Assembly: GCA_035710125.1 (NCBI GenBank)
Contig: DASTDY010000058.1
Span: 704 to 64,703 of the forward strand
Length of the DNA: 64,000 bases
Direction of reading: 5' to 3'
Origin: Candidatus Saccharimonadales bacterium
GTDB lineage: Bacteria; Patescibacteriota; Saccharimonadia; Saccharimonadales; EFPC-124
This document shows, piece after piece, positions 1,879 through 33,725 of this stretch (positions are counted from its first letter, which is position 1; each line of letters begins with the position of its first letter). The translations under genes were made by a program, and so were the position numbers. Under the pieces are notes generated by a model. That model searched no databases and was not told where the DNA came from. It was given only the letters and a program-made list of their open reading frames with translations.

Positions 1879-2373
1879 ATGTCAATAATCGTGATTGCCC
1901 ATAATATTAGAAGTACCCATAACGTGGGGTCTATTCTGCGCACTGCCGATGGTTTTGGGGTTAAAAGAGTGTTTTTAACAGGCTACACCCCTTACCCGAC
2001 GCAGCCAGACGATACACGTCTGCCGCATATCCGCAACAAAATTACCAACCAAATCCATAAAACCGCGCTAGGCGCAGAACAAACTGTGCCGGTTACCTAT
2101 AGCCAAGATGTTCTGGGAATTCTGACCGCACTAAAACAACAAGGGTACCGGTTGGTTGCGTTAGAACAAGGCGCCAAGGCGGTACCGTTGCCACAGCTAC
2201 GCCCCGCACAACATGTCGCGCTTTTGTTGGGCGAAGAAGTACATGGCATTAACCCTGACCTACAAAAGCTGTGCGACACCATCACAGAAATACCAATGGC
2301 GGGCAAAAAAGAATCATTTAATGTAAGTGTGGCTACTGGCATTGCCTTATACCAACTTGCGAACCATCCATAA
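1879..2373 (+). CDS. SpoU/TrmH-family RNA 2'-O-methyltransferase
   Basis: IVIAHNIRSTHNVGSILRTADGFG and EIPMAGKKESFNVSVATGIALY match SpoU motifs. Start placed at ATG 1879 (MSIIVIA). Confidence 0.8.
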   Translation: MSIIVIAHNIRSTHNVGSILRTADGFGVKRVFLTGYTPYPTQPDDTRLPHIRNKITNQIHKTALGAEQTVPVTYSQDVLGILTALKQQGYRLVALEQGAKAVPLPQLRPAQHVALLLGEEVHGINPDLQKLCDTITEIPMAGKKESFNVSVATGIALYQLANHP

Positions 2374-2386
2374 ATACGACATAATA

Positions 2387-3445
2387 ATGAAAGCGATGCC
2401 ACAAAAAACAAAAGTTTCAGCCAAAAACCATCCAACAAAAAAACGGCAACATTTGCGACCGCTCCATATGATGCGGCTTTATGGTTTCGGCGCGCTTATG
2501 GCCAGCCTAATAGCGATCCATTTTATTGCAGCTCTGCAAGCAAATGCCGTCCGCCCAACTCAGCCCCAGAGCGAGGTACTTGCCTATGCTACCTCTATAA
2601 ATGTGGATGATTTACTCGCCGCAACTAACCAATCCCGCGCGAGCAACGGGCTCGCGGCACTTACGCTGAACGCCAAACTGAATAGCGGCGCACAGGCAAA
2701 AGCAAACGACATGATTGCCAAAAATTACTGGAGCCACAACAGCCCAGATGGCACGCAACCTTGGGCATTTTTTGTGGGTGCAGGCTATAACTATGTGCGG
2801 GCAGGCGAAAACCTGGCCTACGGATTCGACACGAGTAGCGGCGTACAGACAGGCTGGATGAACAGCGCTGGCCACCGCGCGAATGTATTGGGCAATTTTG
2901 CAGACGTAGGGTTTGGCATTGCAAACGGCCCAAATTACCAAGGCGGACCGAATACCGTGGTTGTTGCGTTTTACGCAACAGCACAGACAACGCCCGCTCC
3001 TGCCCCTGCCGTGGCGCCTGCCGCCCCAGCGCAGGCACCACCAGCGCCAAAACCCGCGGTTGTGCCACAACCACCAGCTGCGCCACCCGCCCCCGCCCCA
3101 ACACCGCCCGCACCTGAACCAGTAAAACCCGAAGTCCCGCAAGAACAGCCTCTAAACAGCAACCAAAACGAGTCCCAGTCACAACCAAAAGAACCGCCGC
3201 AAGATCCCAAACAGGTCACTACACTCGAGACGGTCTTAAACGGCCAAACTTCATGGCCAACATTCGCCAGCCTAGGGGCGGTTGGCATAACATCTGTAGG
3301 GATCGCTGGAACACACCTGCAACTTATTCGGCGCGGCTGGCGGCAAAGCAGGCATTACATTCTATTGCACCCAGCATTAGACACAGCAGTGCTCGCGGCG
3401 ATTACTGCGGCAATCCTTACCTCTGCGTCTGGTTTTATAAAATAA
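2387..3445 (+). CDS. secreted CAP/SCP (PR-1-like, YkwD-type) domain protein with Pro/Ala-rich linker and C-terminal membrane segments
   Basis: N-terminal TM/signal (LYGFGALMASLIAIHFIAAL). CAP core NYWSHNSPDG...GENLAYGF...GWMNSAGHRANVL. PAPAPAVAPAAPAQAPPAP linker, then hydrophobic C-terminus. Start at MKAMPQK (2387). Confidence 0.7.
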   Translation: MKAMPQKTKVSAKNHPTKKRQHLRPLHMMRLYGFGALMASLIAIHFIAALQANAVRPTQPQSEVLAYATSINVDDLLAATNQSRASNGLAALTLNAKLNSGAQAKANDMIAKNYWSHNSPDGTQPWAFFVGAGYNYVRAGENLAYGFDTSSGVQTGWMNSAGHRANVLGNFADVGFGIANGPNYQGGPNTVVVAFYATAQTTPAPAPAVAPAAPAQAPPAPKPAVVPQPPAAPPAPAPTPPAPEPVKPEVPQEQPLNSNQNESQSQPKEPPQDPKQVTTLETVLNGQTSWPTFASLGAVGITSVGIAGTHLQLIRRGWRQSRHYILLHPALDTAVLAAITAAILTSASGFIK

Positions 3446-3497: not shown

Positions 3498-6400
3498 CTA
3501 TTGAAGCGCCACGCACTCGGCGCCGAGCAACCCAGCGACCGCTGTTTGCAAATCGTTATGCGGGTCTATGGTAAACGGCAAACGCATTGCCGACTTCTTT
3601 TCGGCTCCAAGCACCAATACCACCTCGTGATCGCCTGGATAATTGTTAAAGGTTTGCTTTAGTTTTAAAAGCGCATCGTGGTCATCGGGGTCTTTTACGT
3701 GCACAAACAACCGCGGGCGGGGCGGGGCTGCCTCTGGCGGCTTAGGGTTAGCTTGCGCCTGGTACACTGGCTCTACCGGCTTATATACCACTTTTTTACC
3801 GCCATCGTTGGCCTGGGTTGCCATATTTTTACCCCCAGCTTGTGGCACCTTCATGTTTTTGCCAGTTGATTTGTAATTTTCTAGTTCTTCAGGGGTCACA
3901 ATAGTAATGGTGTCGGCTATTATTTTTATGTCGTCGGTTGTCTTGCCGTCGCGGTCTTTGGCATTCACCTTACCCTTTACCTTAATAACTGTATCTTGCA
4001 GAAGCTTTTCGCCGATTTCTTCGTAGGTTTTCGGAAAAACAATAACTTCCATTTCGCCAGATTTGTCTTCCATTTTTACAAAGGCCATTTTAGTGCCGCT
4101 TTTGGTTAAAATGCTACGGGATTCTAAAATAATACCACCGACTGTTGCTGGTTTGTTGTCCATTTCTTTTGCGAGTTGGGCAATTGGTAGGGTCTGCTCT
4201 GTAAAATAGGCGTCGTACTTATCGAGCGGATGTGCGCTTAGGTACAACCCTAACAATTCGCGTTCCCAAAGCAGCATTTCGTGCTCTTTTACCCTGGTAG
4301 GCGCAGACTCTAGCTTAAGCGGGGCAACCATAGAATCGAGCAAATTACCAAATAGGTCGGTCTGGCCAGTCGCTGCATCTTTTTGCACCTTGCTGGCATA
4401 AGATAAAATAGTGTCGAGGTTAAATAATAGGTCGCTGCGCTCACCCATGGAGTCGAACGCACCAGCCTTGATAAGGCTTTCTAGGTTTTTGCGGTTTACA
4501 ATGCGCACGTTCACACGCTTTAAAAAGTCTTCGAGGCTCTCGAATTGCTTTTCTTGTCGGGCACGCAAGATTTCTTCTACGGCATTGGTGCCCACGTTCT
4601 TTACTGCATTAAGGCCAAAACGAATCCGGTTAGAGTCTGGAACCACGGCAAACTCTGCGAACGACTGGTTGATGTCTGGGTTGCTCACCGCAAGGCCCAT
4701 GTGCCGGCATTCGGCGATTTCTATAGCTAAACGGTCGGTGTCGTCTTGGTCGCTGGTCATAAGCGCCGCCATAAATGCCGCCGGAAAGTGCGCCTTTAGG
4801 TAGGCAGTCCAGTAAGAGGTCATACCATAGCACGCAGAGTGCGACTTGTTAAAACAGTAGTCGGCAAACCCGAGCAGGTCTTTCCAGAATTTCTCTATCA
4901 CCTGCTTTGGCACGCCATTTTTTACTGCGCCGTCAATAAACTTAACCTGCATTTTCTCCATGACGTCGAGCTTTTTTTTACCGATGGCCTTACGCAGCGT
5001 ATCGGCCTCTCCGCCGGTAAACCCACACACATCGCGCGAAATCTGCATCACTTGTTCTTGGTACACCAACACGCCAAAAGTATTGCCAAGCGCTGATTCC
5101 ATTAACGGGTGGGCGTAACTAACTTTCTCTAACCCGTTTTTGCGCTTAATAAAGCTATCTGTCAGGCCAGCCGAGAGTGGCCCTGGGCGGTACAGCGCAC
5201 CCATGGCGATCACGTCGTCGAACAAGGTTGGCTTTAGCTCACGCAAATAGCGCTTCATACCGGCAGATTCAAACTGGAACACGCCGGTGGTGTCGCCCCG
5301 GCCAAGCAGCTCGAAGGTTTTTTTATCGTCGAGTGGGATCGTACTAAGGTCTATATCGACATCATGCACCTTTTTTATTATGCGCATAGCATTCTTAATA
5401 ATGGTAAGGTTGCTGAGGCCCAAAAAGTCCATTTTAAGTAGGCCAAGCTCCTCTATCTGGCCCATCGGAAACTGCGTAGACACCACGCCTTTTTGCGCCA
5501 TTTCTAGCGGCACATACTGCACGAGCTCACCTGGCGCAATCACCACGCCACAGGCATGCACGCCGTGGCTGCGGATGGTACCTTCTAGCCTCATTGCAAG
5601 GTCGATCACTTTTTTAGACGTTGGGTTACCTTCGTACTCTGCCTTAAGGTCGGGGTCTTTTTGGATCGATATTTTTAGGGGAATATGCCTACCCTGGATT
5701 GGCTGCGGGATCAGCTTAGCAAGGCGGTCTGCATCGCCATACGGCACCTCAAGCACACGGGCAACATCGCGCACAGCCGCCCGGGCCGCCATTTTGCCGA
5801 ACGTCACAATATTAGATACGCGGTCGGAGCCGTATTTATCGGCGCAATATTGGATAACTTCGTCGCGGCGAGTGTCGGCTATGTCTACGTCTATGTCGGG
5901 CATGCTAATACGGTCGGGATTTAGGAAACGCTCGAATAACAGGCCGTATGTTAATGGGTCTAGATCGGTAATCCTGAGCGCATACGCAATAATTGAGCCA
6001 GCAGCCGAGCCTCGCCCCGGGCCAAAAATAATTCCTTGGTCTTTGCCCCAGTTTATAAAATCCTGCACGATTAACATGTAGCCGTTAAAGCCCATGCCGT
6101 CGATCACGCGTAGCTCATAGTCGGTGCGCTCAAGCACCTGTTGGTCAACCATGTCTCGCACCTCTTGGATAGTCATGGTTGCAGCTTTAGCGCGTTCAAC
6201 CTGGGCGTACCGCTCGGCGAGCCCTTGGAACACGAGCTTATCTAAAAAGGTCTTTTCGGTCTCGCCGTCTGGCACGGGGAACTTTGGAATTAGTATGCCA
6301 CCCAGCTCTAGCTTAACGTCGCAACGGTCGGCGATTTCTTTAGTGTGCGCAATAACCTCGGGGTACTCTTTGCCCCACCTGGAGATTATTTCTTGGGGGG

Positions 6401-7181
6401 ACTCTACGTAAAGGTCGAAATCTTTTAAAGAGAACCTGTCTTGGTCGCTCACAAATGCGCCAGTTTGCACACATAGCAAAATTTCGTGGGCGTCTTTGTC
6501 TGAATCAGATGCATAATGCGCATCGCAGGTCACAACCACCTTAATGTCTAAGTCCTGCGCAAGTTTGATAAGTTTTTTGTTTACCCGTACTTGTTCTTCC
6601 CATTTATGGGTATGCTCGGGGTGGCCATGGTCTTGGATTTCTATGTAATAGCGATCGCCGAACACCTCTTTATACCACTTTGCTGCTTCGTATGCTTTGG
6701 CGTCTTGGTCGTTGCGGAGGTTTTCGCCCACCTCGCCACCAATGCATCCAGACAAACAAATAAGCCCTTCGCTGTGTTTTTTTAGCAAGTCGCGGTCTAT
6801 GCGTGGCTTGTAATAGTAGCCATCTAGGTTGGCAGTTGTAGAAAGCCGCATAAGGTTTTGATACCCTTGGTTGTTCATGGCAAGCAAAATAAGGTGGTAG
6901 CGAAACTTATCTTTTACGGGATCTTTATCTTTTAAAGATCGGGGCGCCATGTAGGTTTCTATACCTATGATTGGTTTTATGCCGCGGGCGTGCGCTTCTT
7001 TATAAAATTCAATCGCACCACTAAGGGTGCCGTGGTCGGTTATAGCCACGGCCTCCATGCCTAACTCTTTTACGCGGTCCAGCATTTCGGGCACTTTTTG
7101 CAGGCCATCAAGCACACTGTAGTGTGTGTGGTTATGCAAATGCACGTAATCACTAGGCTGGAGCGCCTTTTGGTCCGTCAC
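3498..7181 (-). CDS. dnaE: DNA polymerase III alpha subunit
   Basis: 1227 aa with GTG start. PHP domain HLHNHTHYSVLDG, polymerase core (GPGRGSAAGS, PDIDVD, FNKSH) and OB fold, followed by an extra low-complexity linker and small C-terminal domain. Confidence 0.95.
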   Translation of the reverse strand: MTDQKALQPSDYVHLHNHTHYSVLDGLQKVPEMLDRVKELGMEAVAITDHGTLSGAIEFYKEAHARGIKPIIGIETYMAPRSLKDKDPVKDKFRYHLILLAMNNQGYQNLMRLSTTANLDGYYYKPRIDRDLLKKHSEGLICLSGCIGGEVGENLRNDQDAKAYEAAKWYKEVFGDRYYIEIQDHGHPEHTHKWEEQVRVNKKLIKLAQDLDIKVVVTCDAHYASDSDKDAHEILLCVQTGAFVSDQDRFSLKDFDLYVESPQEIISRWGKEYPEVIAHTKEIADRCDVKLELGGILIPKFPVPDGETEKTFLDKLVFQGLAERYAQVERAKAATMTIQEVRDMVDQQVLERTDYELRVIDGMGFNGYMLIVQDFINWGKDQGIIFGPGRGSAAGSIIAYALRITDLDPLTYGLLFERFLNPDRISMPDIDVDIADTRRDEVIQYCADKYGSDRVSNIVTFGKMAARAAVRDVARVLEVPYGDADRLAKLIPQPIQGRHIPLKISIQKDPDLKAEYEGNPTSKKVIDLAMRLEGTIRSHGVHACGVVIAPGELVQYVPLEMAQKGVVSTQFPMGQIEELGLLKMDFLGLSNLTIIKNAMRIIKKVHDVDIDLSTIPLDDKKTFELLGRGDTTGVFQFESAGMKRYLRELKPTLFDDVIAMGALYRPGPLSAGLTDSFIKRKNGLEKVSYAHPLMESALGNTFGVLVYQEQVMQISRDVCGFTGGEADTLRKAIGKKKLDVMEKMQVKFIDGAVKNGVPKQVIEKFWKDLLGFADYCFNKSHSACYGMTSYWTAYLKAHFPAAFMAALMTSDQDDTDRLAIEIAECRHMGLAVSNPDINQSFAEFAVVPDSNRIRFGLNAVKNVGTNAVEEILRARQEKQFESLEDFLKRVNVRIVNRKNLESLIKAGAFDSMGERSDLLFNLDTILSYASKVQKDAATGQTDLFGNLLDSMVAPLKLESAPTRVKEHEMLLWERELLGLYLSAHPLDKYDAYFTEQTLPIAQLAKEMDNKPATVGGIILESRSILTKSGTKMAFVKMEDKSGEMEVIVFPKTYEEIGEKLLQDTVIKVKGKVNAKDRDGKTTDDIKIIADTITIVTPEELENYKSTGKNMKVPQAGGKNMATQANDGGKKVVYKPVEPVYQAQANPKPPEAAPPRPRLFVHVKDPDDHDALLKLKQTFNNYPGDHEVVLVLGAEKKSAMRLPFTIDPHNDLQTAVAGLLGAECVALQ

Positions 7182-7284: not shown

Positions 7285-7722
7285 TTAGTTGGCGTGATGT
7301 TTTAGATAAACAGCAATTAGGTGTGCACGACTGCGGCAACCGCTTTTGGCGTAAATCTGTTCAATGTGATAGCCAACATTCGAAACACTGAAGAACATGC
7401 GAAAGGCAATTTGCGTAGAAGACAAGCCTTCCAGCGCTACGTAGCGAACAATTCGCATCTGATCTTCGGTGATTCCGTCCAATCTTTCTTTAGGAGGGCC
7501 GAGTTCATGGATCGTTGCCTTTATGGCGTCTTCAATGTTATCTACCTTTAATCTCCTGAAGATGGTCTTAAGTCGGTTATCCACCGGACGTGCCGAGTTC
7601 TTCCCAAGAAGTTTGCGGGCAATTTCGGCACTTGTTTCCCCTTTCGCTTTGGCAGAAAGAATCTGCAATTGCAATGTAGTCAGAACAATACCCACAGCTG
7701 CCCCTACCAGATATCCGCGCAC
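7285..7722 (-). CDS. transcription regulator with two tandem LuxR/GerE-type HTH modules, no receiver domain
   Basis: Module 1: LTTLQLQILSAKAKGETSAEIARKL...VDNRLKTIFRRLKV. Module 2: ITEDQMRIVRYVALEGLSSTQIAFRMFFSVSNVGYHIEQIYAKSG. Confidence 0.55.
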   Translation of the reverse strand: MRGYLVGAAVGIVLTTLQLQILSAKAKGETSAEIARKLLGKNSARPVDNRLKTIFRRLKVDNIEDAIKATIHELGPPKERLDGITEDQMRIVRYVALEGLSSTQIAFRMFFSVSNVGYHIEQIYAKSGCRSRAHLIAVYLKHHAN

Positions 7723-7803
7723 CTAAAGGATAAGCTAGAATCGTAAAGCGGGCAAGTTGCCCAGCAATACTCCCGCTGCGTGCACTCCGAGCATTTTGGT
7801 GAA

Positions 7804-9081
7804 CTATAAGGCCTTACCAATAGGGTCTTGAGGTGTCGTAGGTGGCACGTTTGGCGTACCTTTGGGTGTGTGTTTATGCTTGCGCCACCAGTAATAAAAA
7901 CCGCCGCTGGCTAAGCCCAACAACGCTAAACCACCGATCACCCCTACATACCATGGCGTGTCCGAACGTGTAGTTGACGTAGTTGGATTCTGGGGCGCCT
8001 CTGCTGTGGCAGCCACAGTAAAGGCAAGTACATTCTTTCGCTCCGAAGTCTTATTTGTAGCCGGATCAGTGATTTCGGCCTCGACATGGTGGTCGCCCGC
8101 AGGCAAATCTTTTACCTCGTATGACCAGTTCCCGTCTTTATCTGCGGTAACTTCGGCTGTTTTGGGCTCTGAAAATATATATAATTTTACTATCCCATTT
8201 GGCACCGTCTTACCACTTAGCAACAAAGGTTTATTGGCCGGCACGGTTATTGGTTTTTGGGCGTCAACTGTTTCACCAGAAACAGTAACAGCCGCCAGGG
8301 TAGGTTCCGTCGGATTGGCAGCCTGAGGCGTCTGCGCTGGTGAAGTAGTCGTTGGGGTGCCCGTGGTGGTACGAGGCGTTGTTGTAGTGGCGGTTGGAGC
8401 TGGGCTCGCAACCGTTTTTTTATCGAAGCGGGCAACCGCTGTCTCTGAGGCATTAACGCCGTTCACCGTGCCACTACATGTTGCAGAAGTGTTTAGTGCA
8501 TCCGCTCCCTTGCCGACTAAGTCGCATATTGTCCCGCTTGTTTCCCATCCTACAAATACAGAGTCTGCGGCTGGGGCGGCAGTGAATGTGTATCCTTGGC
8601 TTCTTCCCAGGCTGTGCGAACAGTCACCCCCACAACTAACGCCTGTACCTGTAACCGTACCCGACCCAGAACCGCTTTTGGTTATATTTGTGGCTATTGT
8701 GCCGTATAACCACGTAGCCATAAGGTAATTTCCGCTCGGCCTATATCCTATATTGTAGCTACAAGTAGTGCCGGAGTAGCTTGCAGCTGCCGACTCATTA
8801 CACGCCTGACCGCTGTTAGAACTCCAACTCACAAACTGTTTGGCCGGATCTGTGGTTGTAGCAGTAAGGGTAATAGTGCTGCCATCCGGAAAATTCTCTT
8901 GGCAGTCACTACCACAGTTAATCCCTGCGGGGCTGCTCGTTACAACGCCGCCCGCAGAGCCCGTTAGCGTAAATGTATACGTAGGCCCAGCCTGCGCAGT
9001 GTGCAGGCTAAGAAAAACGCTTAAGAGCCCTGCTATCAATACCAGGCAACTAACACCCCCGACAAAATGATGACTACCCAT
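7804..9081 (-). CDS. cell-surface protein: signal peptide, InlB-B-repeat-like Cys-containing domains, Thr/Pro linker, Ig-like domain, C-terminal TM anchor
   Basis: Signal LVLIAGLLSVFLSLHTAQA. Repeats GGVVTSSPAGINCGSDCQENFPDGSTITLTA...FVSWS and GTVTGTGVSCGGDCSHSL...FVGWE. Linker PTATTTTPRTTTGTPTTTSPAQTP. Ig-like TADKDGNWSYEVKDLPAGDHHVEAEITD. TM WYVGVIGGLALLGLASGGFYYWW followed by RKHKH. Confidence 0.7.
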   Translation of the reverse strand: MGSHHFVGGVSCLVLIAGLLSVFLSLHTAQAGPTYTFTLTGSAGGVVTSSPAGINCGSDCQENFPDGSTITLTATTTDPAKQFVSWSSNSGQACNESAAASYSGTTCSYNIGYRPSGNYLMATWLYGTIATNITKSGSGSGTVTGTGVSCGGDCSHSLGRSQGYTFTAAPAADSVFVGWETSGTICDLVGKGADALNTSATCSGTVNGVNASETAVARFDKKTVASPAPTATTTTPRTTTGTPTTTSPAQTPQAANPTEPTLAAVTVSGETVDAQKPITVPANKPLLLSGKTVPNGIVKLYIFSEPKTAEVTADKDGNWSYEVKDLPAGDHHVEAEITDPATNKTSERKNVLAFTVAATAEAPQNPTTSTTRSDTPWYVGVIGGLALLGLASGGFYYWWRKHKHTPKGTPNVPPTTPQDPIGKAL

Positions 9082-9226: not shown

Positions 9227-9421
9227 CTAAACAGGGACACCCCATCCCGTAAAAGTTGTTTCGGCAGTTACTGGTGTGAGCACTTCAAAATATACAGTCG
9301 CAACCTGAGCATCGGGCGTGAGGTTAGCGGCGACTTCCACGTAGGTAGTGGCATTCTGCACAGATGCCGTGGTTGTATCGAGCACCTCTACATACGTTGT
9401 TGCGCTGCGCGAGTCAGCCAT
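9227..9421 (-). CDS. 64-aa repeat protein, last gene of the tail-fibre-like module
   Basis: Its ATG overlaps the upstream stop (TAATG at 9419-9423). Contains three copies of a heptad-like unit: ATTYVEV, ATTYVEV, ATVYFEV. Confidence 0.45.
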   Translation of the reverse strand: MADSRSATTYVEVLDTTTASVQNATTYVEVAANLTPDAQVATVYFEVLTPVTAETTFTGWGVPV

Positions 9422-10425
9422 TAGGCAACCTCCATGCCCGCTTCCATGCCATTTACTACAGTGTCTGTCCAAGCAGTTGAAGTGTTCGGATTAGTATCGT
9501 AGACATCGCTGTAGGGCACATACGAGGTACCTAGCGCACGAGTCGTCCCATAATAAAGCGTACTATTTATGAGCAACGCTGATTTGGCATTGCCGGTGCT
9601 GGCATCGCTTTTTGCCCCAATAAAATTATTCTGCACACCAAATATTTGCGTAACAGAAGGTAAGTCGGCGAGCACGTAGGTATCACGCTGGCCAACGGTC
9701 GGCGACCCAACATAGTCGGTAGTCGAGAACGGTTTTTCATCAACTAGCTGGAAGTTATCCACCTGGTTACCATCAGACCCCGTGAGTTGTGAATAGGTAC
9801 CGTTATTACTAGGCGAAAGGGCATGGATCCTGATATCCCCTAAGAACGTAGTATTGGAACTACCAGTGGAGTTAAGCACATACACGTCGTCAAAGCGCGC
9901 CGAAGAACCACTCGTTGACGTAATAAGTGCCACTTGATCAATGTTAGTACTTGTACCACCGTTTTTGGTATCGCCAGTAAAATCAATTTCGTTTGTCGTA
10001 GCACCATTTAGACGTACTTTTACAGTACCGCCCGAGTCCGCAACGGTTGCTTGCACTTCAAGATAATTCCATGTTAAAGGAGGAATGATTGTGGTTCCCC
10101 TAGCTAAGCTCGTACCAGCACCCGCCAACCCTCTGCGCGCATCAATGACACCCCCAGCGGTGCGCATAATACTAAGATGGGTCGTTGTCCCTGCATCGCC
10201 ACGAAAAGCAACACCACATTCACCTGCGGAAGAATAAAATGCAACACCTATTGTCACCTGCGCCGAGGGAGTTATTGAACGTGCCGCCGCGTCAGAAGTA
10301 CCTACCACGGCCACCATACCAGTCCCAAAACGAGTGGTCGACGAAGAGACAGAGGTAAAGCTACCAGGGATCCACTTTGTTGCTATGTCGCCGGCATCAA
10401 AACTATCCAAAAATAATAATGCCAT
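9421..10425 (-). CDS. tail-fibre-associated jelly-roll-like protein, paralogue B (function unknown)
   Basis: 334 aa. Starts directly after the stop of paralogue A. Shares MALLF[LM]D.FDAGD, QATVADSGGT.KVRLNGA.TNEIDFTGDTKNGGTST and TGSDGNQVDN.QLVDE blocks with 10426-11427. Confidence 0.6.
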   Translation of the reverse strand: MALLFLDSFDAGDIATKWIPGSFTSVSSSTTRFGTGMVAVVGTSDAAARSITPSAQVTIGVAFYSSAGECGVAFRGDAGTTTHLSIMRTAGGVIDARRGLAGAGTSLARGTTIIPPLTWNYLEVQATVADSGGTVKVRLNGATTNEIDFTGDTKNGGTSTNIDQVALITSTSGSSARFDDVYVLNSTGSSNTTFLGDIRIHALSPSNNGTYSQLTGSDGNQVDNFQLVDEKPFSTTDYVGSPTVGQRDTYVLADLPSVTQIFGVQNNFIGAKSDASTGNAKSALLINSTLYYGTTRALGTSYVPYSDVYDTNPNTSTAWTDTVVNGMEAGMEVA

Positions 10426-11427
10426 CTACACTACCTCCATTCCACCCTCAAGATTACTTATTTCAGACGACGTCCAGGGGAGTGATGTCACCGGACTGTT
10501 TTCATACATATCAGAATAGGTCTGCGCACTTGTCCCTAGAGACACTGGGGCACCGTAATACACAGATCCATTTGAACGTAGTGCAAATTTTATTGCCCTG
10601 GTCCCCGCTGTATTTTTTAAACTCATCACATTGCTCTGGATACCAAATATTTGATGGTACCCGTTTGGTAGGTTATCTAGCAAATATGTATCGCGTTGAC
10701 CAGATGTAGATGAGCCTACATAATCAGCCGTGCTATACGGTAGCTCATCGACAAGTTGATAATTGTCAACCTGATTACCGTCCGAGCCGGTGAACTGCGA
10801 GCTTGAACCATTACCATTCGGAGTTAATGTGTGAACTTGCACCGCACCTAAAAATGTAACATTATTCGTACCTATCGAATTAAGCGCATACATATTATCG
10901 ATCCGGTTGTTCGATGAGCCATTATCGATCCGAATAGCGTCTATAAGCGTACTAGTACCGCCGTTTTTAGTATCGCCAGTAAAATCAATTTCATTTGTCG
11001 ATGCGCCATTTAGGCGAACTTTTATGGTACCCCCCGAATCAGCCACAGTTGCTTGCATTTCTATGTAGTACCATGTACCCGCGCTTAACACTGTGGTGCC
11101 GGTTGCAAGTATTGTCCCACCCCTCCTAATTTCAAGGAGACCCGAAGAGTTATTGCGCATTACATTCGCATGCAATATTGTCCCGCCATCGGCCATAAAA
11201 TATACAGTTATTCTACTCGCGCTTACTACAGGCTGATAAGCCAAACCTACTGTTACCTGCGCTGATGGAGTAATTGGACGATAGATATCGGCAGAGGAGC
11301 TTAGCTCGACAGAGCGGCCCGAACCATAGGGCGTTATAGTGCTAGAGGTAACAATAGACGATGAAGCTGCACTCCACTTAACTAACACGTCCCCAGCATC
11401 GAACCCGTCCATGAATAATAACGCCAC
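10426..11427 (-). CDS. tail-fibre-associated jelly-roll-like protein, paralogue A (function unknown)
   Basis: 333 aa, separated by 1 nt from the upstream tail-fibre-like gene. Roughly half the residues are identical to paralogue B by eye. Confidence 0.6.
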   Translation of the reverse strand: MALLFMDGFDAGDVLVKWSAASSSIVTSSTITPYGSGRSVELSSSADIYRPITPSAQVTVGLAYQPVVSASRITVYFMADGGTILHANVMRNNSSGLLEIRRGGTILATGTTVLSAGTWYYIEMQATVADSGGTIKVRLNGASTNEIDFTGDTKNGGTSTLIDAIRIDNGSSNNRIDNMYALNSIGTNNVTFLGAVQVHTLTPNGNGSSSQFTGSDGNQVDNYQLVDELPYSTADYVGSSTSGQRDTYLLDNLPNGYHQIFGIQSNVMSLKNTAGTRAIKFALRSNGSVYYGAPVSLGTSAQTYSDMYENSPVTSLPWTSSEISNLEGGMEVV

Positions 11428-11428
11428 G

Positions 11429-12430
11429 TTATAGCACCTCTACTTGCACGGTAAGACTACTGCCCGCTACAGTACTTCCCGTTTGATCAATATCAACGGT
11501 TAAGTAGGAACCATCTGCCACTGTTGTTATATCCATGTTCGTTACCTTGCCCGAGGTGTTCGTAGAAGCAGCAATAGTAGGGCGGTTCGCCTGGTTAGTA
11601 AAAATTGTCGTACCATTAACGTTTACGTCTATTAAAATCGAAGCGCCAGTTGGTGCGGTACCCACACTAGCCCGTACACCCTGAATCGTCCAGGAAGAAC
11701 CCGAATCATTGTAAAGTCGGTGTGTGCCGCCCGCCGCCGACAGAGTACCTGTGTTCGAGAAAACATGCGTACGGGTAACAGTAGTACTCGGTAATTGGCC
11801 AGATGGCACTTTACCGCCCGAATCTAGCGACGCATACCCATTCGCTACCCCTTTATTGGCGGTCGCTTCTTTTGAGGCTAAATCTGAAACTAAGTTAGCA
11901 ACGGCAGACTCCGGAAACGCACCAGACGGCACAACCGGCGCTACGGTAAACGTTTTGGTGCCTCCAATGCTTTGGCTAGATGTAAGGTCGACAAAATTTT
12001 GTGTAGTAGACCCTGTACCTCCTTGGTCTACAGGCAGGGCACTTATTAGGTGTGTCGCAACAACAGTGGGCGCCGCGGCAGTTCCACCTAGGTCGTTCGT
12101 TAGTTGTACTGCACCCTTGGTACTCCCTGACGCATCGGGCGCAGTTGAAGATGTGGCCGCAATAGTAACATCCACCTTATTCCCAGGCGAATCATCTGCT
12201 GTGGTTATAGTGACATTGCTGCCTTCTATAAAATTAATGCGTTTGCGCGTGCCACTTAGAGTATCAGCTCGTGCAACCTCGATCTTTTGTACAGAAACAT
12301 CATTAGTGATAGCGCCGTTGACCGCCGAGCTTTTAAGAGCGCCATCATTTTCGTGGGATTGCGAAAGAAAGTCATTAAGCACAACACCCCAGGTATTTTC
12401 ATCGGCACCTATTGTTGGTAGTCTGCTCAT
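11429..12430 (-). CDS. phage tail-fibre / minor-tail-like protein
   Basis: Motifs LPTIGADENTWGVVLNDFL, KGAVQLTNDLGGTAAAPTV, LPVDQGGTGSTT and ANGYASLDSGGKVPSGQLP are typical of tail-fibre proteins of phages of Gram-positive/actinobacterial hosts. A 190-nt AT-rich region lies upstream. Confidence 0.7.
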   Translation of the reverse strand: MSRLPTIGADENTWGVVLNDFLSQSHENDGALKSSAVNGAITNDVSVQKIEVARADTLSGTRKRINFIEGSNVTITTADDSPGNKVDVTIAATSSTAPDASGSTKGAVQLTNDLGGTAAAPTVVATHLISALPVDQGGTGSTTQNFVDLTSSQSIGGTKTFTVAPVVPSGAFPESAVANLVSDLASKEATANKGVANGYASLDSGGKVPSGQLPSTTVTRTHVFSNTGTLSAAGGTHRLYNDSGSSWTIQGVRASVGTAPTGASILIDVNVNGTTIFTNQANRPTIAASTNTSGKVTNMDITTVADGSYLTVDIDQTGSTVAGSSLTVQVEVL

Positions 12431-12623
12431 ACATTTACTTCATTTGTTAGACCTATCTCATAAAACAGGTAATAATCATGACAGCTAGGTCTTACTGCTA
12501 TTACTAATAATTATAAGGTAATGGTTATAAAATGTAGTAACTTTATTTAAGTAAATGATGCCAAAAGTTAAATAACTATCATTTTATAGAGGCCAGTTCT
12601 ACAAGGTTAGCCTAAACCAACAG

Positions 12624-32149: not shown

Positions 32150-32557
32150 TTGCGCATTCACACTGGCCCGATCCAAACGAATTCGGACCAACAGAATCAG
32201 CTCGACGCGTTTTGGCTCGCTGCCACCATGGAGAACGACGCGAAGATCCTCTTGGAGGTCAAGCGAGCAACACGGCTCGTCCCACGGTCGTTCACCCTAC
32301 AGCTCAATGGGCGCACCGTTGCATGTACGTTGCAGCGGTTTGTGCTTGAAGAGCAGAACATCATCTTGGCGACTATTCCGCCAGTCGAAACCGAACGAGT
32401 ATGGCCACGCGACATCCCCCAGCCTTGCGTGGTGATGTTCACTCGCATCGGAAGCGAACGCTGGCAAGCTGCAGAGTTTATCGTGAGGCTCACCGGCGGG
32501 CCACTCACCAAGATACAGCTACTCTCGCTCATGTTGGGCGAACCAACATCCCGATGA
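32150..32557 (+). CDS. orphan GC-rich ORF 3a (135 aa), unknown function
   Basis: AAGGAG at 32139-32144 lies 5 nt before TTG 32150. Codons are G/C-ending biased. No recognised motif. Contains GSERWQAAEF, resembling the G.ERW.VV block of 3b/3c. Confidence 0.5.
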   Translation: MRIHTGPIQTNSDQQNQLDAFWLAATMENDAKILLEVKRATRLVPRSFTLQLNGRTVACTLQRFVLEEQNIILATIPPVETERVWPRDIPQPCVVMFTRIGSERWQAAEFIVRLTGGPLTKIQLLSLMLGEPTSR

Positions 32558-32633
32558 ACAGGGAGCACAACAAGCACGGGTGACGGCCCGACCTTGCTGG
32601 CCCCTGCCGATGGAACTGCTGATGTAGCCGCGT

Positions 32634-32664
32634 GTCGCCGCCCGAAACCAACTCGGGCGGCGAC
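32634..32664 (+). terminator. GC-only hairpin after ORF 3a (12-bp perfect stem)
   Basis: GTCGCCGCCCGA-aaccaac-TCGGGCGGCGAC with no U tract, followed by an abrupt switch to AT-rich DNA. Confidence 0.5.
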
Positions 32665-32715
32665 TGCCCACTCTAATTTATTAGTGTTTATGGCTTAAAC
32701 ACACTTTTTAAAAAA

Positions 32716-32789
32716 TTGCAAAGCGTACAATTTTATTTTATTATTTATTAGCAAATCGACCCCGCTTTGCAAAACCACGATGCTATAAG
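32716..32789 (+). promoter_or_regulatory. AT-rich promoter region for ORFs 3b-3c with a 10-bp inverted repeat
   Basis: Candidate 1: TTGCAA (32716), 17 nt, TATTAT (32739). Candidate 2: TGCTATAAG (32781-32789), only 5 nt before GTG 32795, which resembles the native TGCTAYAAT leaderless layout. The inverted repeat TTGCAAAGCG (32716-32725) / CGCTTTGCAA (32763-32772) brackets the region. Confidence 0.35.
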
Positions 32790-32794
32790 GACTT

Positions 32795-33271
32795 GTGTTG
32801 GACAAGCTGAGTGACAACACCGACTCCACTCCGTTGCACTTTCGGGTTGCGCCTCCGGAATACCTGAAGGTTGTGAAGATCGAAGAGGTCAAGTGGCCGG
32901 TAGACCAGACGGCGCTGCAAGCGGCGCAAAATGCGTTCGCCGACCACCTGAAAGAAATGGTCAACCCCATCGGCGAAGAAGCGGTCATCCCACCGGTTGT
33001 GATCGATGGGCGGGAGTGGCAGGTGGTAAGCCTGATCGCCCGTGAGATCTTCTTGGCGACTGTGCTTCGGCACGGTGCCGAGTATCTCATGGTCGACCAA
33101 GAATGCTCAAGCAGCATGCACGTCAGGTTCGGCGCTGAAGCCCACGGCTACTCCAGTGTTCCTACGCCTGGCCGTGAACCTGCCGACGCAACCGACTTGC
33201 AACAGGCAGCTGCAATCCACGAGCTGCAAATGGCGACCGCCACCTACAAGATGATGGAGTTCTGGTCGTAA
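32795..33271 (+). CDS. orphan GC-rich ORF 3b (158 aa), unknown function
   Basis: GTG start. G/C-ending codons. Block DGREWQVVSLIAREIFLATVLRHGAEYLMV...FGAEA parallels ORF 3c. Confidence 0.5.
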   Translation: MLDKLSDNTDSTPLHFRVAPPEYLKVVKIEEVKWPVDQTALQAAQNAFADHLKEMVNPIGEEAVIPPVVIDGREWQVVSLIAREIFLATVLRHGAEYLMVDQECSSSMHVRFGAEAHGYSSVPTPGREPADATDLQQAAAIHELQMATATYKMMEFWS

Positions 33272-33314
33272 CGGGTAGCACTGCTATCAATATCCGCAAC
33301 GCCAAGGGAGAAAC

Positions 33315-33725
33315 GTGTCTACCCCTCCGCCCCACCGGTCGGTCGTCCACACCGAGCTGTTCGAGGTGAACATCGACCCAGAAGTCGTGAAAAAGGCGAG
33401 AGGCCTCTTCTTGTTGGGGCAGTACGCACAGGACGTCCACGAGGCATCACTGGACATCGGCTCCAACACCTTCAGGCTTGGTGGCGAACGTTGGGAGGTA
33501 GTGGCCACCGAAGACCTCGGTCTGACACTCCTGATGTCCGAAGCACGGTACATGCTGGTTTCTACCGTGACCGTGCTGCCTGCCTACCCCCTGGTGGAAT
33601 TCGCCGAAAAGGCCGACTGGTCTGAATCCGGCGCGTTTGTCTCGGCTCAGGCAGAGCAGCGAAGGGCGGCCATGAACAGGCTCCAACCCATGCTACGAAA
33701 GCTTGAGCGTCGGCACCGGGCCTAG
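33315..33725 (+). CDS. orphan GC-rich ORF 3c (136 aa), probable distant paralogue of 3b
   Basis: AAGGGAG lies 4 nt before GTG 33315. Block GGERWEVVATEDLGLTLLMSEARYMLV...FAEKA. Basic C-terminal helix RRAAMNRLQPMLRKLERRHRA. Confidence 0.5.
   Translation: MSTPPPHRSVVHTELFEVNIDPEVVKKARGLFLLGQYAQDVHEASLDIGSNTFRLGGERWEVVATEDLGLTLLMSEARYMLVSTVTVLPAYPLVEFAEKADWSESGAFVSAQAEQRRAAMNRLQPMLRKLERRHRA

Follow-up and report, generated by a model that had tools for sequence, protein, structure and literature searches.

An orphan cassette of phage-type receptor-binding genes in a Saccharimonadales genome: a candidate host-attachment module

Background

The defective prophages of E. coli K-12 carry tail-fibre genes: stfE/tfaE of e14, stfR/tfaR of Rac, and stf/tfa in Qin. 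PblA and PblB of the Streptococcus mitis phage SM1 are tail-fibre proteins that act as adhesins. In RcGTA of Rhodobacter capsulatus, the tail-fibre and head-spike genes lie apart from the main structural cluster, and control is by a kinase/phosphorelay. In siphophages, the distal tail module follows the genes for the tape measure and baseplate and closes the tail genes. It consists, in this order, of a PHROG 27064 fibre, a PHROG 2448 protein and a small TTYVEV-repeat protein (L022/L023, Brevundimonas phage vB_BsubS-Delta gp31, cyanophage Pam4 gp35). In the BppU-BppL system of the lactococcal phages TP901-1 and Tuc2009, the short N-terminal helix of the receptor-binding protein (RBP) is a plug-in docking element. 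In mycobacteriophage Douge, the peripheral baseplate protein gp23 BppU has a CBM for host cell-wall glycans, and its binding of mycobacterial glycans was shown experimentally (PMC13033339). Lectin-like surface proteins are essential to the epibiotic growth of one cultured saccharibacterium (PMC10633639), and a role in adhesion has been proposed for the ConA-like lectins found in phages of Patescibacteria (PMC12911398).

Results

A tight four-gene cassette, G1-G2-G3-G4, occupies positions 9227-12430 of the minus strand. It is set among housekeeping genes of the window, that is, of the whole 64-kb stretch of DNA analysed. Its features are as follows.

Leader: 12431..12623, minus strand; 193 nt, 29% GC, untranslated, upstream of G1; presumed promoter region
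G1: 11429..12430, minus strand; 333 aa, tail-fibre-type protein
G1 N-terminal anchor motif, residues 1-33: 12332..12430, minus strand
G1 C-terminal beta-sandwich, residues 215-333: 11432..11788, minus strand; PHROG 27064 type
G2: 10426..11427, minus strand; 333 aa, GTG start; two-domain lectin-like protein
G3: 9421..10425, minus strand; 334 aa, paralogue of G2
G4: 9227..9421, minus strand; 64 aa, ATG at 9421, start overlapping the G3 stop
Direct repeat, 128 nt, 83% identical: 9947..10074 and 10949..11076, strand not assigned; from the repeat search

The ORF coordinates bear out the packing of the original prediction: G1 and G2 are separated by 1 nt, G2 and G3 by 0 nt, and the stop of G3 and the start of G4 overlap in TAATG. 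An 81-aa variant of G4 starting at an upstream TTG was rejected, the ATG at 9421 being preferred. The AT-rich leader, earlier put at about 190 nt, was also observed. The cassette promoter would presumably lie there. The leader has no match to Rfam families and its folding is not unusual (z = -0.69); a scan for the sigma-70 consensus found nothing on the minus strand within it.

No virion, integrase, lysis or tRNA genes were found throughout the 64-kb window. Pfam scans of essentially all window ORFs produced only housekeeping, envelope and regulatory families. The window was also compared with 4,348 ORFs taken from related loci (78 in all) of viral, prophage-like or RBP-rich type, and a deacetylase domain was the sole match outside the cassette. 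Thus the predicted lack of virion genes near the cassette, based on these scans and the tRNA search, extends to the whole 64 kb, and no contiguous prophage or tailocin, which had been named as a possible disproof, is present there. The repeat search found no inverted or att-like repeats around the cluster, in agreement with the prediction. A satellite cassette had been considered as well; there is no sign of one, as integrase, replication and packaging genes are absent. The GC content had been described as native. This holds for the bulk GC (0.46-0.49 in the cassette, 0.49 in the window). However, the GC3 of G1-G3 is lower (0.41-0.43 versus 0.49 +/- 0.04 in other genes), and the tetranucleotide signature of the cassette is the most deviant among the 3.2-kb stretches of the window (0/76 as extreme). 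The latter deviation may be due in part to unusual amino-acid composition.

In G1, a docking motif at the N-terminus is followed by a low-complexity shaft, which includes a DUF5907-like repeat, and by a beta-sandwich at the C-terminus. It has 613 homologues, many of them named Saccharimonadales or Patescibacteria. In PHROG it matches phrog_27064 (3e-29, residues 215-332), the minor-tail family phrog_13892 (7e-10) and phrog_1446. The string KGAVQLTNDLGGTAAAPTV falls within a match to DUF5907 that is weak and does not reach the Pfam cut-off (E 0.004), and the regions with LPVDQGGTGSTT and ANGYASLDSGGKVPSGQLP align to minor tail proteins of Gordonia phages in partial tblastn matches. Together with the IMG/VR patterns described below, these matches confirm that motif strings of G1 recur in phage tail proteins. 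The AF2 model is confident for residues 235-333 only, the C-terminal beta-sandwich having a pLDDT of ~90. Its fold matches are weak (lambda gpJ fibre, CBM35/CBM6; E > 4e-3). The identity of this domain to other chromosomal and viral loci is 52-73%, and the G2-type gene is immediately preceded by one encoding such a domain in the majority of chromosomal loci and also in several viral loci (L021, L022, L023, L028).

The most conserved part of G1 is the N-terminal anchor, M-[SA]-R-L-P-x2-G-x-D-x3-W-G-x2-L-N-D-F-L-x3-H-x2-D-G, with a helix predicted by AF2 at residues 11-25. It was found in all 11 chromosomal loci checked, with three carriers in L094 and two in L006. Thirteen positions are invariant in the 11 anchor sequences of chromosomal loci; seven of the 11 were completed C-terminally with inferred residues (about alignment positions 34-40), and the invariant positions are unaffected. 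The pattern WGxxLNxxLxxxHxxDG has 54 exact matches among IMG/VR contigs, and BLASTP places about 35 of them at the start of the ORF or no more than a few residues from it. These ~35 proteins are 128-1309 aa long and include tailspike-like ones. Two contigs with anchor carriers were checked with PHROGs: L084 also encodes a portal, major head protein and tape measure, and L054 a large terminase and major head protein. Relatives have faint or weak Pfam matches to BppL_N; for G1 itself there is no such match at E <= 1.

G2 and G3 are 55% identical and both match phrog_2448 over the full length (9e-39 and 3e-32, respectively). G2 has a lectin fold, a CBM6/ConA-like jelly roll with a second beta-sandwich (AF2, pLDDT 93). 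Foldseek searches of this model against PDB yielded sialidase, galectin-like and GH131 folds, and also the baseplate chain 8zdo_a of mycobacteriophage Douge (E 1e-5), which, from its length, is taken to be gp23 BppU. Thus the expected structural similarity to phage receptor-binding proteins was found, with an actinophage baseplate glycan binder. Phage proteins from BFVD are matched with TM 0.7-0.89, one of them being annotated as a 'virion structural protein', and the G2 family profile matches the CBM6 structures 1o8p/1nae (E 5e-5).

The 128-nt repeat spans the motif that is best conserved in G3 and G2, VRLNGAxTNEIDFTGDTKNGGT, the invariant core of the family. It could be caused by strong constraint or by gene conversion between G2 and G3. 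In the weak NJ tree, the duplication of G2/G3 is older than the split from the L093 lineage, and the chromosomal G2 copies fall into a few clades, whereas the viral copies branch off more deeply. The closest phage relatives in this tree, L021-L023, have GC content of 0.48-0.55, low like that of Patescibacteria; copies from actinobacterial genomes are more distant. Thus L021-L023 look like phages of low-GC hosts, e.g. Patescibacteria, and the ancestral ligand may be the surface of the epibiont itself.

G4 contains three TTYVEV-type repeats and has no family match in Pfam or PHROG. Its homologues occupy the same cassette position in L003, L006, L007, L010, L022, L028 and L093. Repeats of this type were also observed inside larger cassette-ending proteins of L004 (Laminin_G_3), L008, L009 and L012.

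In phages, the identical gene order closes the tail module. In L022, the tape measure, minor tail and tail protein genes are followed by G1-like, G2-like and G4-like genes and then by DnaB and primase. The G2-type gene of phages lies in the tail module downstream of the tape measure; examples are Brevundimonas phage Delta and cyanophage Pam4, and in L098 the tail-module context includes Baseplate_J. The cassette is of phage ancestry, and the assignment of its genes to receptor-binding-type hardware is supported. As predicted, this hardware, belonging to phage RBP families, is kept in the window without a virion. The G1-like protein of the sampled G2-carrying phages has an N-terminus unlike the cassette anchor. 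The combination of the anchor and a G2-type gene occurs in 11/11 chromosomal loci and 0/~70 sampled viral loci.

The cassette was found between housekeeping genes in at least nine other Patescibacteria loci. The boundaries are the same in L003 (1.2-Mb contig), L004 (0.73 Mb), L005, L006, L008, L013 (0.57 Mb), L093, L096 and L097. G1 is followed by one to four copies of G2 and then by G4 or a lectin protein. All ORFs are intact in these loci, except in L004, where G1 is split in two. The position of the cassette differs between lineages. It is an orphan in the relatives as well, as no particle genes are present within 10 kb in 10 loci. One particular family of sensor histidine kinases adjoins the cassette in five loci whose surroundings otherwise differ, which suggests integration into host circuitry. 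In L005 and L096 the cassette proteins are 57% identical, compared to 29-35% for the adjacent kinase and TatC; the position-specific orthology of the paralogues in this comparison is weak.

Loss or decay of the genes in close relatives had been named as evidence against domestication. However, the genes are intact in L093 (complete), L091 and L099 (partly captured, same synteny) and L094 (different gene context). In an alignment with L091, the closest relative, nucleotide identity is about 0.90 across 6 kb of flank and across G1, but 0.60-0.75, with saturated dS, from exactly the G1/G2 junction onward. The dN/dS ratio of G1 against L091, the check suggested originally, is 0.077, and its dS equals that of the flanking genes. 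Thus G1 is under purifying selection and has descended vertically under constraint. The alleles of G2 and G3 have been replaced by recombination. Strain-level diversification appears to be limited to the lectin genes.

These data bear on the possibility that the cassette is a functionless cryptic prophage remnant, which persists through tail-fibre recombination with incoming phages and repeated re-acquisition. The replacement of the G2/G3 alleles, the different loci across lineages, the split G1 of L004, the atypical tetranucleotide signature and GC3, and the clear phage origin would all agree with that. On the other hand, the module has identical boundaries in at least ten loci, although its counterparts are mid-genome genes in phages, and this is not expected from random decay. 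An integrase, att repeats, tRNA and other remains of a phage are absent, the genomes are streamlined (roughly 1 Mb), the anchor plus G2 architecture is absent from the sampled phages, and the cassette shows linkage to a host kinase. Given also the low dN/dS of G1 with flank-like dS, we consider a functionless remnant unlikely; the simple prophage remnant of the original prediction is disfavoured by the clean boundaries, intact genes and constraint on G1. The cassette looks like a retained phage-derived glycan-binding module, rather than a decaying prophage.

No signal peptide or membrane helix was predicted in any of ~30 cassette proteins encoded in the window and in 10 further chromosomal loci; the same prediction detected the export signals of two secreted window proteins used as controls. 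No twin-arginine motifs were observed in the cassette proteins of these loci. Thus a surface role needs some other export route or cell lysis. The fact that a virion-type docking motif is the most conserved part of G1 suits particle mounting better than free display.

A serious rival to host attachment is that the cassette provides the parts with which a virus-like particle, encoded at another place, binds its receptor. Through its anchor, G1 would dock on the tail tip or the baseplate of this particle, which might belong to a resident prophage or an infecting phage or might resemble a gene-transfer agent, and G2 and G3 would determine the cells bound by the particle. In lacking export signals the cassette proteins resemble virion proteins, and the anchor, with its 13 positions invariant among chromosomal copies, recurs in tailspike-like proteins whose contigs also encode portal, capsid, tape measure or terminase. 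Its presence on several different RBP-type proteins of a single locus, as in L094 and L006, resembles interchangeable RBPs on one adaptor; hypervariable lectin genes, as in phage RBPs, and the sensor kinase adjoining five of the cassettes also fit. However, particle genes are absent both within 10 kb of the cassette in 10 loci and across the window, the sampled G2-carrying phages have another G1-like N-terminus, and we know of no gene-transfer agent in Patescibacteria. A particle-borne role is uncertain, though only somewhat less likely than host attachment.

The cytoplasmic appearance of the proteins and the conserved docking motif would be also consistent with an anti-phage decoy, making progeny particles unable to adsorb to kin cells: the host fibre would compete for the docking site on assembling tails, or free lectins would mask the receptor. 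The cassette of L093 has SMC-like and KAP NTPase genes among its neighbours, as in variable or defence islands, and free tail fibres can protect bacterial communities, according to Hu et al. 2024 as cited in PMC11934309. However, the neighbours are housekeeping genes in most loci, PADLOC defence families gave no match, and a decoy would leave the contrast between hypervariable lectin subunits and an invariable anchor unexplained. Moreover, to our knowledge, there is no precedent for a decoy mechanism with a three-protein module. Such a function is very improbable.

Discussion

The explanation that we tentatively favour is that a phage-derived receptor-binding module has become, in Saccharimonadales and other Patescibacteria, a stable non-prophage chromosomal cassette that would recognise glycans on another cell. 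The assembly of a complex, its target and any exit from the cytoplasm are inferred. G1 would form a short fibre, probably a trimer, whose N-terminal helix serves for docking and whose C-terminus folds into the conserved beta-sandwich. The lectin subunits G2 and G3, of CBM6/ConA-like type, would sit on this fibre and bind cell-wall polysaccharide, and G4 might be a small beta-repeat connector or assembly factor. With this complex the bacterium could recognise glycans on another cell, the likeliest candidate being the actinobacterial host of the epibiont, and swaps of lectin genes between strains would alter the specificity. Judging from sequence, a role as a host-attachment apparatus is plausible.

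Among the known systems, the siphophage distal tail module shares with the cassette PHROG 2448, PHROG 27064, the small TTYVEV-repeat protein and the gene order. However, the tape measure, baseplate, capsid, packaging, lysis and replication genes are absent here, the type of the G1 anchor differs, and the neighbours are housekeeping genes. The docking helix of TP901-1/Tuc2009 may be compared with the predicted helix of the G1 anchor, and the chain taken to be Douge gp23 BppU resembles G2. This is likeness at the fold level only (TM ~0.4), and the cassette proteins are not members of these families by sequence; moreover, the genes are ordered differently, and there is no baseplate here for docking.

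PblA and PblB, signal-less like the cassette proteins, reach the bacterial surface and adhere to another cell type. However, they are encoded by an inducible prophage that is complete and whose holin and lysin release them, and neither a prophage nor lysis genes are present here. RcGTA is similar in that its receptor-binding genes stand alone in the chromosome, and its phosphorelay may be compared with the kinase linkage of the cassette; its head-tail cluster has no counterpart around the Patescibacteria cassettes (64-kb window; 10 kb in 10 loci). The E. coli K-12 defective or domesticated prophages, like the cassette, retain tail-fibre genes without a functional virion and with recombined receptor-binding alleles. 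These genes lie inside prophage scars that still contain integrase, invertase and further genes of phage origin, whereas the cassette has clean boundaries conserved across deep streamlined lineages and is often linked to a kinase.

Organization of the cassette

The cassette occupies positions 9227-12430 of the window and consists of four genes, listed in the direction of transcription.

11429-12430, minus strand: G1, ORF of 333 aa
10426-11427, minus strand: G2, ORF of 333 aa with a GTG start
9421-10425, minus strand: G3, ORF of 334 aa
ATG start at 9421, minus strand, within the 9227-12430 block: G4, ORF of 64 aa

The layout described in the original prediction, with tight packing on the minus strand, gaps of 1 nt and then 0 nt, a TAATG overlap and an AT-rich leader, agrees with the ORF coordinates and the GC content. 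The overlap is formed by the G3 stop codon and the ATG of G4. An 81-aa ORF with a TTG start was considered for G4 and rejected, the real start being the ATG at 9421. The leader upstream of G1 comprises 193 nt with 29% GC. It has no match in Rfam, no stable or unusual fold, and no convincing promoter or terminator.

The GC content had been described as native. This holds for the bulk value; however, GC3 of the cassette is low (0.41-0.43, compared to 0.49 +/- 0.04 elsewhere in the window), and its tetranucleotide signature is the most deviant among all 3.2-kb stretches of the window. A 128-nt segment of G3 (9947-10074) is 83% identical to a segment of G2 (10949-11076) and spans the region of the invariant FTGDTKNGGT motif. 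Strong constraint may be the cause, or gene conversion between G2 and G3.

Tail-fibre and lectin-like proteins

G1 has significant matches to profiles of phage tail fibres and minor tail proteins. Its residues 215-332 match phrog_27064 (2.8e-29), and weaker matches to phrog_13892 (7e-10) and phrog_1446 (3e-5) were observed, both being "minor tail protein" families of PHROG. The similarity to DUF5907 (E 0.004) is below the Pfam cut-off; PF19264 is present in longer relatives of G1. Minor tail proteins from Gordonia phages align to the middle part of G1, among them gp32 of Neville, encoded by the penultimate tail gene ahead of the lysis genes. In the AF2 model of the G1 monomer, pLDDT is below 50 over residues 39-148, and only residues 235-333, forming a C-terminal beta-sandwich, are modelled with confidence. 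Since no fold match of this model falls below E 4e-3, the C-terminal domain stays unclassified. A sequence search of PDB with G1 alone gave nothing useful, and the G1 profile had no match there.

The most conserved part of G1 is its N-terminal motif, the anchor (residues 1-33, type WGxxLNxxLxxxHxxDG), with 13 invariant positions. A search of IMG/VR contigs with a degenerate pattern for the first ~33 residues yielded 54 exact matches. For about 35 of them, BLASTP placed the anchor at the start of an ORF or within a few residues of it. The proteins range from 128 to 1309 aa, and the GC content of the contigs from 0.33 to 0.70. Both anchor carriers that we examined are tailspike-like proteins: one contig (L084) also encodes a portal, a major head protein and a tape measure, and the other (L054) a large terminase and a major head protein. 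Judging from sequence, G1 shares with proteins of real virions an N-terminus that may serve for docking to the virion. A 40-aa profile of the anchor, run against a big protein collection, matched only short fragments without architectures; Saccharimonadales, Nanoperiomorbaceae and one Mycolicibacterium were confirmed to have the motif.

Some chromosomal loci contain several anchor carriers. In L094 there are three: a fibre with DUF5907 and Phage_phiTE_241_C (2217-3314), a 790-aa pectate-lyase beta-helix protein (4045-6417), and G1 (10001-11002). L006 has two (10001-11605 and 11688-12383). The presence of one anchor on several receptor-binding-type proteins of a locus suggests that they may have a common docking partner. 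In L004, on a 0.73-Mb Saccharibacteria contig, the G1 homologue is split into two overlapping ORFs, 9487-10017 (176 aa, with the anchor) and 10001-11266 (421 aa), as a result of a frameshift, pseudogene formation or an assembly error.

G2 and G3 are 55% identical to each other and belong to PHROG 2448 over their entire length. Residues 2-332 of G2 cover positions 1-333 of 335 in the profile (9e-39), and G3 also has a full-length match (3e-32). The family includes 23,957 clusters at 50% identity, nearly all of 320-350 aa. The AF2 model of G2 (pLDDT 93) comprises a jelly roll at the N-terminus and a further beta-sandwich. In Foldseek searches it matches lectin, CBM and GH131 folds, as well as 8zdo_a, a chain of the baseplate of Mycobacteriophage Douge. 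Many phage proteins in BFVD share the whole fold (TM 0.7-0.89). The family profile reaches CBM6 structures 1o8p/1nae by sequence (5e-5), the only ones that it gave; a single-sequence search of PDB with G2 yielded nothing useful. PHROG 2448 proteins are thus predicted to have a CBM6/ConA-like carbohydrate-binding fold. We take 8zdo_a to be gp23 "BppU" of Douge because the chain is 311 residues long, as reported for gp23. The CBM of gp23 binds mycobacterial glycans experimentally (PMC13033339). The expected similarity of fold to phage receptor-binding proteins was found for G2, but G1 had only weak matches. G4 contains three TTYVEV-type repeats and matches no family.

In real phages, genes of the G1, G2 and G4 types stand at the end of the tail module. 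In L022, a viral contig, tape measure, minor tail proteins and tail protein are succeeded by G1-like, G2-like and G4-like genes, and then by DnaB and primase. Baseplate_J is present in L098, and G2-type genes follow the tape measure in Brevundimonas phage Delta and cyanophage Pam4. They also occur in actinobacterial genomes (Agromyces, Phycicoccus, Microlunatus, a Mycobacteriales MAG). In a simple NJ tree, which is crude and only indicative, chromosomal G2 copies of Patescibacteria group into a few clades; among the viral sequences, the low-GC contigs L021-L023 are closest to them, and the copies of Actinobacteria are further off. The anchor and a G2-type gene occur together in all 11 chromosomal loci, compared to none of ~70 sampled viral loci, in a sampling that depended on exact patterns.

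Absence of virion genes

A Pfam scan of essentially all ORFs in the 64-kb window produced only housekeeping, envelope and regulatory families. The cassette is flanked by pilB, dnaE, a LuxR-type regulator and a Big_13 surface protein on one side, and by DUF5665, YtxH, galU, gatCAB, uvrB, pentose-phosphate, glycolysis and tRNA-synthetase genes on the other. There is no tape measure or other tail gene in the window; the position downstream of a tape measure is characteristic only of the G1 homologues in phages. We also compared the window with 4,348 ORFs from 78 related viral, prophage-like or RBP-rich loci. The only region outside the cassette resembling any of these ORFs is the following.

56529-58376, plus strand: secreted polysaccharide deacetylase with two CBM_4_9-like repeats

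The deacetylase part shares 30% identity (E 7e-21) with a viral protein that bears the anchor (L068:989-2311), in the C-terminal half of the latter. Two further regions of the window were noted.

7285-9081, minus strand: two genes directly downstream of the cassette, after a 145-nt gap, the first for a 425-aa Big_13 protein
32150-33725, plus strand: three consecutive small ORFs of 135, 158 and 136 aa without Pfam matches

The Big_13 protein has a signal peptide and, at its C-terminus, a membrane anchor; the protein encoded next (145 aa) contains two helix-turn-helix units of the GerE/LuxR type and lacks a receiver domain. The second and third of the small ORFs may be paralogues, as they share the pattern G-x-E-W-x-V-V by eye.

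Thus the absence of virion genes claimed in the original prediction extends over the entire 64 kb. The absence of att-like repeats was confirmed as well: no repeats flank the cassette, the only repeats being the paralogous segments of G2 and G3. ARAGORN found no tRNA or tmRNA genes at 1-64000. An integrated or cryptic prophage was rejected, as integrase or recombinase genes, att repeats, a tRNA target and accompanying phage genes are all missing from the 64 kb. A tailocin, contractile injection system or gene transfer agent (GTA) encoded around the cassette was rejected because no tube, sheath, baseplate or capsid genes occur in the window or within +/-10 kb in 10 related loci. The cassette is not a target of a diversity-generating retroelement: the window contains no RVT family and no template/variable repeat pair, only the G2/G3 paralogue segments. 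An RVT_1 gene was observed 9 kb from the cassette in L005 only. None of G1-G4 matches a known anti-phage defence system in PADLOC at E <= 0.01, and a role as an anti-phage decoy seems very improbable.

The cassette is a phage-derived receptor-binding module standing alone in a chromosome. This part of the original interpretation stands; features of a prophage or a tailocin were not found in the window.

Conservation in Patescibacteria and exchange of lectin genes

Searches produced 613 homologues of G1 and 332 of G2, mostly metagenomic, several of them named Saccharimonadales, Saccharibacteria or Patescibacteria. On long contigs the boundaries are kept: an anchored G1 is followed by one to four G2 copies and then by G4 or a larger lectin-type protein with G4-like repeats. 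In the closest relatives (L091 and L099) the cassette is at the same place as in the window. The cassette is conserved with fixed boundaries across Patescibacteria.

Other loci with the cassette between housekeeping genes
L003: 1.2-Mb contig CP064993
L004/L015: 0.73 Mb
L005: 0.34 Mb
L006
L008
L013: 0.57-Mb contig
L093
L096, L097

In one lineage (L005, L006, L097) the cassette occurs at slightly different points of the lepA ... hrcA-grpE-dnaK interval. In a search for strains lacking the cassette at the window locus, a degenerate pattern for the DUF5665 flank matched nothing in JGI metagenomes. An exact-protein look-up gave one further contig only, also with G1, and no record was found for the LuxR-side flank.

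Members of one sensor histidine kinase family adjoin the cassette in five loci with otherwise different surroundings.

Kinase genes adjoining the cassette
L004:7553-9406
L005:7025-8929
L008:5811-7688
L096:7667-9574, minus strand
L013:14500-16605

The kinases (617-701 aa) are homologous over approximately the full length at 24-40% identity. Those of L004, L005, L008 and L096 are immediately adjacent to the cassette and have a signal peptide, after which comes a YGxxTYGxCxY motif; in L013 the corresponding region begins ~90-120 residues into the ORF as called. The window contains no orthologue. In several loci (L005, L008, L096) tatA/tatC are situated just beyond the kinase. When distant genomes are compared, the adjacent kinase and TatC are less conserved than the proteins of the cassette.

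In the comparison with L091, dS of the flanking genes is 0.4-0.8 and dN/dS 0.01-0.04; for G1 these values are 0.45 and 0.077, and G1 is under purifying selection. The protein identity is only 77% for G2 and 85% for G3, with dS saturated. In 100-nt sliding windows the identity is ~0.90 over the 6-kb flank and G1, and drops sharply, from the junction of G1 and G2 onward, to 0.60-0.75. Therefore the lectin genes have been replaced by distant alleles rather than diverged in place, and they are still intact. Lectin subunits are exchanged between strains. L004 and L008 have three or four G2 copies, but the signal for orthology by position among them (55.6-55.8% compared to 54-55%) is too weak to rely on.

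Conservation in relatives, on which the original proposal of domestication depended, was thus observed. A selfish or neutral remnant would explain a phage fragment in a chromosome with no function for the cell. It is unlikely, as fixed boundaries, streamlined genomes, the kinase linkage and the pattern of selection all argue against decay.

Possible function

A simple hydropathy scan, not a trained predictor, showed no signal peptides or membrane helices in ~30 cassette proteins, which come from the window and 10 further chromosomal loci (11 in total). The maximum 15-residue hydropathy in the first 45 residues does not exceed 1.3 for the four proteins of the window and 1.6 for the other loci. 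The controls, CAP and Big_13, are secreted proteins encoded in the window and gave 1.63 and 2.75, respectively, so the separation from CAP is marginal. The separation is clearer with 19 residues over whole proteins (at most 1.61 for the cassette, 1.86 and 2.49 for the controls). An adhesin exported by Sec or Tat or anchored in the wall was rejected, given the lack of a signal peptide, twin-arginine motif, membrane helix or sorting signal. Tat export in particular had been suggested by the tatA/tatC neighbours in four loci, and was ruled out by the absence of twin-arginine signals from all cassette proteins.

In the proposed arrangement, G1 would be the fibre, G2 and G3 would be glycan-binding subunits mounted on it, and G4 might serve as the connector. 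The one observation pointing to contact between G1 and G2 is that the PHROG 27064 domain lies directly upstream of G2-type genes. Our preferred reading, which is tentative, is a glycan-recognition device owned by the cell, most plausibly for recognition of a partner or host. A close competitor, only somewhat less probable, is that the proteins are parts of a virus-like particle encoded elsewhere; it stays alive because export signals are missing and the putative docking motif is retained.

A role in glycan recognition is ecologically plausible in view of published work. In a cultured saccharibacterium, lectin-like envelope or surface proteins have proved essential (PMC10633639). For ConA-like lectins encoded by Patescibacteria phages, a role in promoting adhesion has been suggested (PMC12911398), and a prophage of an actinobacterial host binds TM7x cells (PMC13578794). 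The selection and holding of hosts by ultrasmall epibiotic bacteria has to date been linked only to type IV pili and to a small number of lectin-like surface proteins (PMC10633639, PMC11665869). The cassette is a compact, widely conserved candidate of phage origin whose lectin subunits differ between near-identical strains. We speculate, with less confidence than in either function taken singly, that Patescibacteria have domesticated a phage tail tip as a self-contained, kinase-regulated and strain-variable system of glycan recognition, which would set the host cell of the epibiont or arm a GTA-like particle, the host range changing by swapping of G2 and G3.

The cassette also provides a first functional handle on PHROG 2448, with its ~24,000 sequence clusters without an assigned function. 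If its proteins serve virus-like particles, this would hint at undiscovered particles or a new type of phage-host interplay in Patescibacteria. The cassette shows that very small genomes can retain, over long times, nothing of a phage but its receptor-binding end. Our literature searches on a saccharibacterial tail-fibre cassette or DUF5907 found no description of it. The sharing of an anchor by proteins of L094 and L006 resembles that of one adaptor by interchangeable receptor-binding proteins of a phage. Retention of phage tail-fibre genes by a bacterium is known; what is unusual here is the clean modular conservation in very small genomes, combined with swapping of lectin genes at the level of strains.
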